From the NCBI RefSeq assembly GCF_988243305.1, contig NZ_OZ547138.1: a stretch of DNA of 64,000 nt. The stretch is one strand, 5' to 3'. The stretch comes from a plasmid. Position 1 is the stretch's first letter, and every line of letters starts with the position of its first letter. Below, piece after piece: positions 48,001 to 51,000 of the stretch. Made by a program: the position numbers.

Positions 48001-51000
48001 ACGCCAAATTCTCTGGCCGCTTTTTCGCGTGACCAGAGCATGCTTTTTCGCCAGATTCGCAGTTCCCAGTCGGTCATAAAATACCTTTGAAAAAGTGAAA
48101 AAACTTCACTTTATTTTATCACCATAATCACCAAATCAGCGCGAAAAATAAGTGTGAAAAAGTGAAGAAATTTCACTTTTTTTAATTGCAGATGTCGTGC
48201 TGTTTTCTCTGTTTTCACCTGTGCGGGAGTGGTGTGCCAGTGACCACCACATGCCATTGTTGTGCCGTCGTTTTTCTTCAGTCGCGCCGGATGCGGCGCT
48301 CCCTGCACACCTGACGGTGTGTAAGGCCACTGCGCCTGATGGCGCAGCTGTCTCTGCCTGTCTGCCGCCGCACTGCGGCCTGTTCTCCGCAGACGGACTT
48401 TCCGGGGGAACATACACGACCACATCCCGTTTCAGTTATCCAGGGGAGAGATGTACCAGCCACAAAACTTTTTGCCGCAGGCGTCAAAAACTTTTGCGTC
48501 TGCCCCCGGACAACTGCCCCGTGACGTGGTGAGCATCCCCCGTCGGAAAGGTCCACTGCGGGGAAATCCCCGAAGACCCGGACGGCAGAAGGAGCTTCGC
48601 TCCTCCGGGAAATGACCTGGCTGACCCGGCAGTCGTGACGATGAGGAGACAATGTGATGAATCAGACTTTACCCACTGCTGACCTGAATACTGCCGGCAC
48701 GACAGATATTATTCCGTCTGTGGCCATCGACCGCATTATCGCGCAGCGTAACGAAGGTATTGCACTGTTCATGCAGGCGATGGAATGCCTGGCGACAGCA
48801 CGCAGGATTCTGCTCGATGCTTCTGGTGACATTTTTCTCTACGGGTTTGAAGACTGCGTGACTGACTCTGTTCGATGCATGGATAAACCGGAAGAAGCAA
48901 AAAAGAATATCACCCGTCTTGCCGACCGTAAAATCTGGGACCGCCTGATGGCGGATACGGGGATGTACACCTTCATGAGTTCATGCCAGCGTGATGAGTG
49001 GAACAGCCAGCTGATGAGCGACACCTGTCCTGAAATCACCCTGGACAATGTGCTGGCAACTTTTCGCCATCTGAATGCCAGCAAGATGCAGACATTTGAA
49101 CAGAGACTGATTGATGTCTACCGGAAATTGTCATGGGATTACAGAACCAATAATCCCTGCCGTCTGGGCAAGAAAATCATTATTGAAAACCTGCTGTACC
49201 GCTGGAGTAACGGGCGTGTGACGCTGGACTGCAGCGGACGGGAGGCACTGGATGACCTGGTACGTCCGTTTTATCTGCTGGAGGGACGCAACGTTCCTGA
49301 CTTCAGGAACAGCATCGGGGCGCAGTATGGTGAATATCTCGGGAACGGCGATAATGTCGGTAAGCTGTTAGAAGGGGAATATTTTACGGTGCGTGGCTAC
49401 CAGAAAGGGACCGTACACATTGTCTTTAAGCGTCCTGACCTTGTTGAAAAACTGAATGATATTATTGCACGGCATTATCCTGGTGCATTGCCGCCACGAG
49501 TCTGATTAAACAGAAAAGCCCTGGTATTTATGCCGGGGCTTTTTTTCTGTAATCATCATAATCTCAGAACACGATGTGACATTGTCACATCAATTGTTGT
49601 TCATATCGATGCCATCTTTCCTGCCTGAATCTGTCTTTTTAGGTGCTGTTTTAGAGGAAGAACGGCGGGATGGTTTTTTCGATTCTGCTTCCCGAATAAT
49701 GTCGCGAAGTGCTTTCTCTCCTACTTCATACCCTGCATTTTTGAGCGTGTCACGAACATCTGCCAGTGTATAACCCTTTGTCCTTACCAGGACAATGATG
49801 TCATCACGAATGGCATCAAGAAAATCACGCAATGTTTTCCGTTGAGCGGTGAGGTCCGGCAATTCCGATAAGGCAGCTTTTGCCAGCTGGATGTCATCAT
49901 CTGAGTAAAATTTTTTAGAAGCCATTGGCACTTTCTCTCTGTTTTATGTTGAAGCCTGATTTTATCACCAAAACTGCCTCCTGGCAGGGCTGCGCCCTGC
50001 CTCTGCCGTCTGCATAAGACTATGATGCACAAAAATAACAGGCTATAATTGACCGAAAAACGGGACAGGATGTGGGAATGTCGGACCGCGCACGCGCACT
50101 CAGACATTCCCCACCTGGTCAGGGCTTTGCCCCGACACCCCGGTAAGGAGCAGACCATGAGTGAGAAGAAAACCCGAACGGGCAGTGAGAACAGGAAGAG
50201 AATTGTAAAATTCACGGCGAGATTCACGGAGGATGAGGCTGAAATCGTAAGAGAAAAAGCGGAGTCAAGTGGACAGACGGTTTCAACATTTATACGAAGT
50301 TCTTCACTGGATAAGGTGGTTAACTGCCGTACTGACGACCGTATGATTGATGAGATTATGCGTCTTGGCCGCCTTCAGAAGCATCTGTTTGTGGAGGGAA
50401 AACGCACTGGTGATAAGGAGTATGCAGAGGTTCTTGTTGCCATTACTGAATATGTCAATGCTCTGCGAAGAGACTTAATGGGACGCTGAGATAACTGCTG
50501 ATGAATGCCATTATTCCGCACAAAAGACGTGACGGCAGGTCTTCCTTTGAAGACCTGATTGCGTACACGTCTGTGCGGGATGATGTGCAGGAAAATGAGC
50601 TCACAGAAGACAGCGAAATCAAGAGTGATGTCCCTCACCGCAACCGTTTCAGACGGCTTGTTGATTATGCAACACGCCTGCGTAACGAAAAATTTGTCTC
50701 CCTGATTGATGTGATGAAGGACGGCAGTCAGTGGGTAAATTTCTATGGCGTAACCTGTTTCCATAACTGCAATTCACTGGAAACAGCTGCTGAAGAGATG
50801 CAGTACAAGGCGGACAAAGCTGTTTTTTCCCGTAATGATACAGACCCCGTTTTCCACTACATTCTTTCCTGGCCTGCGCATGAAAGCCCGCGTCCTGAGC
50901 AGCTTTTTGACTGTGTGCGTCACACACTGAAATCTCTTGAACTCTCAAAACATCAGTACGTGGCTGCCGTTCATACGGACACGGATAATCTGCATGTGCA

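Follow-up and report, generated by a model that had tools for sequence, protein, structure and literature searches.

The ssi1-ydiA locus in the leading region of an IncI1-type conjugative plasmid: a complete ssDNA promoter upstream of a DUF4942 gene

The locus analysed here is, with an estimated probability of about 0.8, an oriT-proximal unit of 'zygotic induction' on an IncI1-type conjugative plasmid, in which a complete copy of the known single-stranded DNA (ssDNA) promoter ssi1 stands upstream of ydiA, a gene coding for a DUF4942 protein. The identity of the locus and the logic of its promoter, taken by themselves, are very probable. IncI1 plasmids are major vehicles of resistance genes, those for ESBL among them, and the success of their transfer against host defences is decided in the first seconds after entry. 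The ssi1-ydiA unit is the one nearest to oriT and would thus be among the first expressed; its product is encoded by thousands of conjugative plasmids, is uncharacterised, and is mislabelled 'methyltransferase'. Removal of this label, together with the true domain relationship of the protein, leaves a narrower set of experiments on ydiA. The locus itself is already published, ssi1 being a known ssDNA promoter and ydiA a catalogued leading-region gene, and in this respect it adds nothing new.

The ssi1 element and its position behind oriT

The window, that is the whole stretch of 64,000 nucleotides analysed, belongs to an IncI1/Iγ-type plasmid; over this stretch it is 100% identical to NZ_CP145695.1, an IncIγ/K1 MOBP plasmid, and 2142 plasmid records match it. 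Read on the - strand, positions 48607 to 48279 align end-to-end with ssi1 of ColIb-P9 (AJ238399.1:1459-1787; 329/329 nt, 98.2% identity), and the nhmmer E-value is 2.5e-106. Apart from six base differences, the element and its ColIb-P9 counterpart ('Frpo1' in Samuel et al., 2024) are alike in strand, downstream gene, hairpin architecture and distance from the nick region (1459-1787 nt), so that nothing material sets the window copy apart. The Frpo of the F plasmid, in contrast, has only the central ~110 nt in common with ssi1, at ~77% identity.

IncI1 plasmids carry exactly three copies each of the element, as detected by nhmmer. The original prediction had recognised a third copy of this repeat, there called type B, upstream of the ORF, and this was borne out both by a repeat search (48278-48353, 88%; 48417-48529, 91%) and by a three-way alignment, in which homology extends from ~48278 to ~48625. 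The copy had been described, however, as truncated at its 5' end and as possibly a decayed or alternative promoter, and neither description holds. The alignment with ColIb-P9 covers the full length of ssi1, and what the other two copies share in addition (170-180 bp; 38906-39074 and 45251-45420) lies beyond the limits of the defined element. Moreover, ssi1 differs from that of pESBL at 4 of 329 positions, as against a dS of 0.135 in the adjacent gene. Judged by its sequence, the repeat is the complete, canonical ssi1 and is not decayed.

A module ~98% identical to that of the window is carried by pESBL, as found by alignment. According to Wen et al. (2025; PMC12672017), six operons of pESBL are induced; ssi1-3, whose start sites were mapped by 5' RACE, are class 1 ssDNA promoters, a class that also includes Frpo1 and Frpo2 of the F plasmid. 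The operons behind ssi1-3 show strong, transient induction in new transconjugants, and the three elements are reported there to initiate transcription on single-stranded, not on double-stranded DNA (PMC12672017). The same paper attributes the highest transcription rates to class 1 promoters, which also speaks against a decayed promoter. Three operons are transcribed from ssi3-1 (Benz et al., 2023). The view of the ORF as early-expressed leading-region cargo therefore fares well, since its orientation makes the transferred strand its template, a published ssDNA promoter lies upstream, and the nearly identical pESBL module is, according to Wen et al., induced in transconjugants. A scan of 36-51 kb of the window against Rfam returned sub-threshold chance matches only.

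The nick-region motif CACATCCTG|TCCCG, read on the - strand, puts a putative nick between 50066 and 50065, a placement within the motif that we assume from what is known of R64 and RP4. Because the motif lies on the - strand, this is the strand that is transferred, and it enters in the direction of falling coordinates. Counted from 50066, the repeat occupies nucleotides 1459-1787, the very coordinates of ssi1 in AJ238399.1. Behind the nick, ydiA comes at 0.56-1.4 kb and ssi1 at 1.46-1.79 kb; ydiA reads towards oriT on the + strand and has the transferred (-) strand as its template (Table 1). The oriT of pESBL is annotated directly upstream of nikA (PMC4288162 Table 2).

When folded as ssDNA, the - strand of ssi1 reaches -103.2 kcal/mol (z = -7.9 versus shuffles), compared with -86.9 for the + strand, and it equals copy 2 in the strength of its fold. 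The consensus structure shows compensatory change in 10 of 111 pairs among five related copies. In the central hairpin, the apex loop (48477-48482) is flanked by A/T-rich palindromic tracts and by the hexamers TTGACG and TTGTGG, and the 3' arm carries a 10-nt unpaired bulge, GTACATCTCT (48447-48456), which, like the stem, is kept in 5/5 aligned copies. Several registers on both arms of the hairpin were considered for -35, -10 and +1 elements, none of which was canonical while also being conserved in ssi1-3 and F Frpo; for a -10 at canonical spacing near TTGACG/TTGTGG and the A/T-rich apex tract, no placement was convincing. A consensus scan of the + strand from 48078 to 48654 gave no sigma-70 promoter.

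Table 1. Features of the ssi1-ydiA locus and its surroundings (window coordinates)
Feature	Position	Strand	Basis
Divergent 83-aa HTH regulator (Hp21 of pESBL)	47826..48077	-	Pfam HTH_31, phrog_6962
Palindrome O1 (AAAGTGAA-N5-TTCACTTT), candidate operator, adjoining the HTH start codon	48092..48112	.	direct repeat, sequence
Palindrome O2 (AAAAAGTGAA-N5-TTCACTTTTT), candidate operator	48157..48181	.	inverted repeat, 100% complementary
ssi1, class 1 (Frpo-type) ssDNA promoter, full length	48279..48607	-	alignment to ColIb-P9 ssi1, fold, nhmmer
Central long imperfect hairpin of ssi1	48405..48540	-	minimum-free-energy structure
Shine-Dalgarno GAGGAG, 8 nt before ATG	48643..48648	+	sequence reading
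ydiA (Hp22 of pESBL), 282-aa DUF4942 protein	48657..49505	+	Pfam PF13708, RefSeq WP_243053141.1
Bidirectional intrinsic terminator hairpin of the convergent ydiA and yggA (A-tract, GC stem, T-tract)	49512..49545	.	RNA fold
113-aa gene YggA/Hp23, RefSeq 'MobC', convergent with ydiA	49590..49931	-	ORF and RefSeq
oriT core	50050..50140	-	nick-region motif

YdiA and the DUF4942 family

The 283-codon ORF of the original prediction is present on the + strand, from GTG 48654 to 49505; RefSeq and the homologues start at ATG 48657, giving 282 residues, with the GTG as an alternative start. The distance from the repeat end to the ORF, predicted as about 40 bp, is 46-49 bp. Of the description 'unknown ORF', the part that concerns function stands, as the protein is uncharacterised, and the orphan status falls: the product matches Pfam PF13708 (DUF4942; E 2.7e-50, residues 91-276, model positions 5-189 of 190) and belongs to a named, catalogued leading-region family. 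It is a full-length member of the YdiA/YgfB/Hp22 DUF4942 family, like its relatives in position and HTH neighbour. The window protein shares 96-97% identity with the alleles common in IncI1; strong purifying selection acts on its gene (dN/dS 0.08, versus pESBL), and the ribosome-binding site is conserved. Relatives of YdiA fall into 2071 clusters at 50% identity (E<1e-3), and at least 5000 plasmid records carry the family, of which 4588 are conjugative. In the catalogue of Samuel et al. (2024) it is family 24 of the leading region, with 2171 members and a median position of 1 from oriT. Transposon insertions in Hp22 of pESBL were without effect on maintenance or on transfer between laboratory E. 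coli strains (PMC4288162). A literature search on DUF4942 returned four mentions, all incidental.

Homologues of YdiA also occur in phages, and those of pOXA-48 and IncFIB/HI1B plasmids lie at a distance from oriT, surrounded by ssb and antirestriction genes. Upstream of the DUF4942 gene in pOXA-48, IncFIB/HI1B and one Enterobacterales element, neither a class 1 element nor a hairpin as strong as ssi1 was found. The contigs that carry distant DUF4942 homologues are mostly too short to inform on genomic context; one set of these homologues lies in a conjugative-element block together with a toxin-antitoxin pair, an antirestriction gene and a coupling protein.

AlphaFold2 gave a model of YdiA with a pLDDT of 87.4. 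The protein is predicted to be non-catalytic and to have two domains, a helical bundle at the N-terminus and an alpha/beta domain at the C-terminus. No sequence or family-profile match was found in the PDB, nor a solved structural relative, and among the matches listed by Foldseek against AFDB50 there were DUF4942 proteins only. Both the SAM-binding motif I and the catalytic (D/N)PP(Y/F) motif IV are missing from the 282-residue sequence, and YdiA is without the class I Rossmann-like methyltransferase fold. A scan against NCBIfam gave 0 matches, and the PADLOC profiles a single, marginal one (E 0.0055, 35 residues). Nor does YdiA have the acidity of a DNA mimic of the ArdA/Ocr type, with a pI of 6.0 and 38 acidic to 36 basic residues, versus a pI of 4.1 for the ArdA of the window.

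In other proteins DUF4942 is fused, in both domain orders, with a small methyltransferase domain of the M.TaqI-like N6-adenine type, as in Marinomonas phage P12026 gp32, Pseudomonas phage MR13 gp23 and PHROG 6263. The non-catalytic module of these fusions corresponds to the whole of the 282-aa YdiA, with the same order of secondary structure elements, whereas the ~180-aa M.TaqI-like catalytic core, with its SAM-binding motif and NPPF, is missing in YdiA; the core motifs VLEPSAGxG and NPPF occur only in the domain that the fused homologues have in addition. In the AlphaFold2 model of a fused protein, a low-confidence linker separates the domains (pTM 0.59), and their relative orientation is uninformative. 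With the catalytic core as tblastn query, neither the window nor the complete pESBL yielded a partner methyltransferase of this fused type. On sequence grounds, the database label 'methyltransferase' is misleading and YdiA is not a methyltransferase. It is our conjecture that DUF4942 may be a target-recognition domain. ArdA, KlcA/ArdB and M.EcoGIX resemble ydiA in region, in orientation and in having an ssDNA promoter upstream, and all of them, YdiA included, are dispensable in laboratory matings; in sequence and fold, however, they are unlike YdiA, and M.EcoGIX, an ssDNA methylase, belongs to another methyltransferase family (phrog_67).

Flanking genes and proposed course of expression

The small divergent HTH gene expected on the other side of the repeat is indeed there. 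Its product has a weak match to HTH_31 (E 5.8e-4) and a match to phrog_6962 (E 4.9e-12), and fits family 22 of Samuel et al. (2024), an 'HTH regulator; aca6-like' with a median position of 2 and on the opposite strand; in their family table, the aca6 label is borne by only 3 of 2333 members. The palindromes O1 and O2 are 67 bp apart and both are kept in pESBL; either may be an operator. On the other flank, the terminator hairpin folds as RNA from either strand, with -26.1 kcal/mol (z -6.0) for the + strand and -19.4 kcal/mol (z -5.4) for the - strand. Beyond it, YggA/Hp23 gave nothing significant against Pfam and NCBIfam, and was non-essential in the pESBL transposon screen (PMC4288162). As it is coded on the transferred strand, yggA is not transcribable from the incoming single strand.

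If the published work on near-identical plasmids applies here, ssi1 would fold into its hairpin while single-stranded on the entering strand, and host RNA polymerase would read this hairpin as a promoter only in that state. A strong and brief pulse of transcription of the downstream gene would follow right after entry, to be turned off once the complementary strand is made. The transcript would extend from ssi1 across ydiA as far as the bidirectional terminator; ydiA is taken to be the induced gene because no other + strand gene lies between this terminator and ssi1. The HTH gene, for its part, could be expressed only after second-strand synthesis, and the regulator and the two palindromes probably provide for autoregulation and keep vegetative read-through into ydiA low.

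As to what YdiA does, the complete module appears to be the only non-catalytic partner of the M.TaqI-like core in many phage and bacterial proteins. Our best guess, a tentative one, is that YdiA may be a nucleic-acid or substrate-recognition module with a part in early establishment or anti-defence, binding the incoming DNA or steering a host enzyme. A more elaborate and rather doubtful reading would make it a new early anti-defence factor, a free-standing M.TaqI-like recognition module whose enzyme was lost, which as the first IncI1 product would bind incoming DNA or a host enzyme within seconds, until the Aca-like HTH protein shuts it off once the plasmid is double-stranded. One possibility under that reading is that YdiA would stimulate or redirect a host gamma-class methylase, for example HsdM, much as lambda Ral alleviates restriction.

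Alternative readings of the locus

The absence from ssi1 of the ~175-bp extension found in the other two copies, and a possible weak -10 (CATAAT, 48123-48128) seen by eye in the AT-rich intergenic region upstream, could be taken to mean that the copy is decayed or alternative and that ydiA is hardly expressed or has an ordinary double-stranded promoter. We consider this quite improbable, given the full-length match to published ssi1, a fold that is no weaker than that of copy 2, the better conservation of ssi1 than of the synonymous sites of ydiA, and the negative + strand promoter scan; in addition, class 1 promoters including ssi1 are active, with mapped start sites, according to Wen et al. 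(PMC12672017). It is less far-fetched, though still unlikely, that ssi1 is mainly a primer site for complementary-strand synthesis ('single-strand initiation'), ydiA transcription being a by-product. The first descriptions of Frpo/ssi elements were as signals for priming, and their transcripts are said to act as primer and mRNA alike (Masai and Arai, 1997, as summed up in PMC7736820). A primer made at ssi1, however, would copy only the last 1.5 kb, because the transferred strand has its 5' end ~1.5 kb from the element, and downstream of ssi1 come a ribosome-binding site that is conserved, a gene on which strong purifying selection acts, and a terminator. In the F plasmid, moreover, deletion of Frpo1 abolishes early production of the downstream protein (PMC9849209). 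Zygotic induction of ydiA from ssi1 remains the preferred reading.

Two further readings concern the protein. Were YdiA itself a DNA methyltransferase, it could methylate and so protect the incoming plasmid, and many members of its family do bear the UniProt names 'Methyltransferase' and 'Restriction methylase', its phage homologues are annotated as methylases, and PHROG 6263 ('DNA methyltransferase') matches YdiA residues 25-280. Yet only the non-catalytic half of these 450-560-aa methylases is matched by YdiA, VLEPSAGxG and NPPF being in the other half, and a Pfam scan of YdiA finds DUF4942 alone; an enzymatic role is thus exceedingly improbable. Hardly to be expected, too, is a donor-side accessory role at oriT or in the relaxosome, which the location of ydiA within 0.6 kb of oriT, adjoining nikA and nikB, and the family median of position 1 from oriT in 2171 plasmids might suggest. 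In the pESBL transposon screen, Hp22 was not required for transfer whereas nikA, nikB and oriT were (PMC4288162), and there are homologues away from oriT in pOXA-48 and IncFIB/HI1B, and in phages. The orientation of ydiA and its ssDNA promoter point instead to expression in the recipient.

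Identity and structure of the promoter element

The original prediction took the reading frame now identified as ydiA for an unknown ORF, early-expressed cargo of the leading region, standing behind a partial third copy of the 'type B' repeat, truncated and perhaps decayed as a promoter. The coordinates and features of the locus are real, and both a repeat search and a three-way alignment confirmed the third copy. However, when compared with the reference elements that Samuel et al. (2024) list in their Supplementary Table 2, this copy proved to be the intact, known ssi1: all of its 329 nt aligned with ssi1 of ColIb-P9, at 98.2% identity. 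Copy 1 corresponds to ssi3 (98.5% identity), and copy 2 is nearest to ssi2 (88% identity). Moreover, the position of ssi1 in ColIb-P9 (1459-1787) equals the measured distance of the window's ssi1 from the nick region. The further 170-180 bp that copies 1 and 2 share fall beyond the limits of the element as defined. An nhmmer profile of the element detected exactly three copies in each of the window, NZ_CP145695.1 and pESBL, and none in the other loci fetched for comparison.

Features of the ydiA module and of the repeats in the window
Feature	Coordinates	Strand	Remarks
ssi3 (copy 1)	39405..39075
ssi2 (copy 2)	45748..45421
ssi1 (third copy)	48607..48279	-
Bulge in ssi1	48447-48456		10 nt, GTACATCTCT
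Stretches distal to ssi3 and ssi2	38906-39074; 45251-45420		about 170 bp each
'Type A' repeat pair	37284-37583; 44233-44532		97% identical
Rpn-family nuclease gene	46603-47562		within the leading region
77-aa ORF	47562-47795		directly after the Rpn gene
HTH gene	47826-48077	-	83 aa
Palindromes O1 and O2	48092-48112; 48157-48181		candidate operators between HTH gene and ssi1; conserved in pESBL
65-aa RefSeq 'hypothetical protein'	~48111-48308	-
Ribosome-binding GAGGAG	48643-48648	+	before the ydiA ATG
ydiA	48657-49505	+	ATG start per RefSeq and homologues; 282 aa
Terminator hairpin	49512-49545	both	strong, bidirectional; directly past ydiA
113-aa gene	49590-49931	-	adjoins oriT; convergent with ydiA
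Nick-region motif	within 50050-50140	-	preceded by a GC-rich inverted repeat

Folded as single-stranded DNA, the - strand of ssi1 reaches -103.2 kcal/mol (z = -7.9) and the + strand -86.9 kcal/mol (z = -5.1), an asymmetry to be expected if G-T pairing is important in the transferred strand. The RNAalifold consensus of five copies is one long imperfect hairpin with small terminal hairpins, with compensatory change in 10 of its 111 pairs; the bulge was found in all five copies. The window and pESBL copies of ssi1 are identical at all but 4 of 329 positions, against a dS of 0.135 in the adjacent ydiA; thus, the element is better conserved than neutral sites. No canonical -35 or -10 hexamers could be placed in ssi1 with confidence, and for the promoter boxes we rely on published work.

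The ssi2 copy is about equally like ssi2 (88%) and ssi1 (87%) of ColIb-P9 and has a mosaic look: the apex of its central hairpin (TTGACGC..GCGGCAA) matches the ssi1 type and its flanks are like ssi2 and ssi3, a pattern suggestive of gene conversion between the three repeats. The promoter-distal stretches next to ssi3 and ssi2, which ssi1 lacks, are 94-97% identical to each other, more than the ssi cores are. The 'type A' pair, whose members immediately precede the KlcA/ArdB-like gene and ardA, fits the class 2 single-stranded promoters that Wen et al. (2025) put before klcA and ardA in pESBL.

The transferred strand and expression of ydiA

The region 47700-50100 is 100% identical to the E. coli plasmid NZ_CP145695.1 (IncIγ/K1 replicon, MOBP relaxase, MPF_I) and matches 2142 plasmid records, 1910 of which cover at least 80% of the query. 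On the + strand follow genes for a DNA methylase, a KlcA/ArdB-like antirestriction protein, ssb, a ParB-like gene, psiB, psiA, ardA, a 144-aa ORF, the Rpn-family nuclease and ydiA, and beyond the convergent 113-aa gene lie oriT, nikA and nikB, an arrangement that is classical for the IncI1 leading region. The - strand carries CACATCCTG|TCCCGTTTTTCGG, which we take to be the nick-region motif of MOBP origins (R64, RP4). The oriT of pESBL is annotated at the equivalent site, just upstream of nikA (PMC4288162, Table 2). The - strand is therefore the transferred strand. Its 5' end is near 50066, it enters towards lower coordinates, and it is the template for the + strand genes. ydiA lies 0.56-1.41 kb and ssi1 1.46-1.79 kb behind the nick.

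After removal of donor cells, RNA sequencing of new pESBL transconjugants by Wen et al. (2025; PMC12672017) revealed six induced leading-region operons (up to ~500-fold), all six with upstream regions that fold as large stem-loops, and with starts mapped by 5' RACE. Their class 1 comprises ssi1-3 and the Frpo elements of the F plasmid, and gave the highest transcription; class 2 precedes klcA and ardA, and class 3 M.EcoGIX. ssi3-1 transcribe three operons in the 12 kb adjoining oriT (Benz et al., 2023). In pESBL the order HTH, DUF4942, yggA, nikA, nikB is that of the window, with a mean column identity of 98% over 1.5 kb of the module. Since no + strand gene other than ydiA lies between ssi1 and its terminator, we infer that it must be the ssi1 'operon'. 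Early-expressed leading-region cargo was the right description. In a pESBL transposon screen, Hp22, the ydiA orthologue, was non-essential for maintenance and transfer, as were ArdA, PsiB and M.EcoGIX.

As the transferred strand is the one that codes for the HTH protein, its gene would be expressed only after second-strand synthesis. By eye, it has an extended -10 (TGATAAAAT) just upstream of O1, and its product may plausibly regulate itself and block vegetative read-through towards ydiA. The 65-aa ORF overlaps O2 and the distal ssi1 hairpins and is therefore probably not a real gene.

The sequence of the 77-aa ORF (LAERLIQKGFEKGALEVAREIACRLRDMGWPPKRIQEATGLSGEELKKL) is similar to the C-terminal end of the Rpn protein, and the ORF may encode a small Rpn-tail protein in its own right. 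RefSeq names the 113-aa product 'molybdopterin-guanine dinucleotide biosynthesis protein MobC', which looks like an annotation error; the protein had no significant match in Pfam or NCBIfam, and is YggA in the pESBL record (Hp23 as renamed by Yamaichi et al.). In NZ_CP145695.1 a resistance region (21167-30383, corresponding to the window beyond ~54.9 kb) begins within 2 kb of nikB on its downstream side, with IS26, mph(A)-mrx-mphR, IS6100, chrA, sul1, qacEdelta1 and aadA5. In pESBL, trbC directly follows nikB.

YdiA and the DUF4942 family

Far from an unknown ORF, ydiA is a known, still uncharacterised gene whose product belongs to Pfam DUF4942 (E = 2.7e-50). Its dN/dS against pESBL (0.08) indicates a real, constrained gene. 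The DUF4942 family is large, with 2071 clusters (50% identity) at E<1e-3; ydiA relatives occur in at least 5000 plasmid records, 4588 of them conjugative. Copies in IncL/M pOXA-48 plasmids are ~50% identical, and those in Klebsiella IncFIB/HI1B plasmids ~46%. In the pOXA-48-type plasmid NZ_CP071255.1, the IncL/M homologue (4989-5849) forms a block with DUF1380, antirestriction and ssb genes that all share its orientation; upstream of it we found neither a class 1 ssi element nor a hairpin of comparable strength.

In a good AlphaFold2 model of YdiA (pLDDT 87.4), a helical bundle forms the N-terminal part (residues ~25-159) and an alpha/beta domain the C-terminal part (167-274). The PDB gave no match by sequence or by profile, and Foldseek against AFDB50 returned only DUF4942 proteins among the matches listed, some named 'Methyltransferase' despite being only ~300 aa long. 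YdiA is not a methyltransferase, having neither a SAM-binding motif nor (D/N)PP(Y/F), and with a pI of 6.0 it is not an acidic DNA mimic. What the domain analysis adds is that the stand-alone protein is wrongly given the widespread name 'methyltransferase'.

The first half of PHROG 6263 ('DNA methyltransferase', 548 positions) matches YdiA residues 25-280, and in phrog_32703 the order of DUF4942 and methyltransferase is reversed. Many proteins of 450-570 aa join a complete DUF4942 module to a ~180-aa domain with VLEPSAGxG and NPPF; in phages, such fusions sit in early regions. Because of these fusions, DUF4942 would most likely be a substrate-recognition or regulatory module, a conjecture, since the model (pTM 0.59) shows a disordered linker in the fusion. 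Neither the window nor complete pESBL encodes a catalytic core of the fused type, and the plasmid's M.EcoGIX homologue is of a different methyltransferase family from the fused core. Stand-alone YdiA corresponds to the module that is the non-catalytic partner in a mobile-element N6-adenine methylase family.
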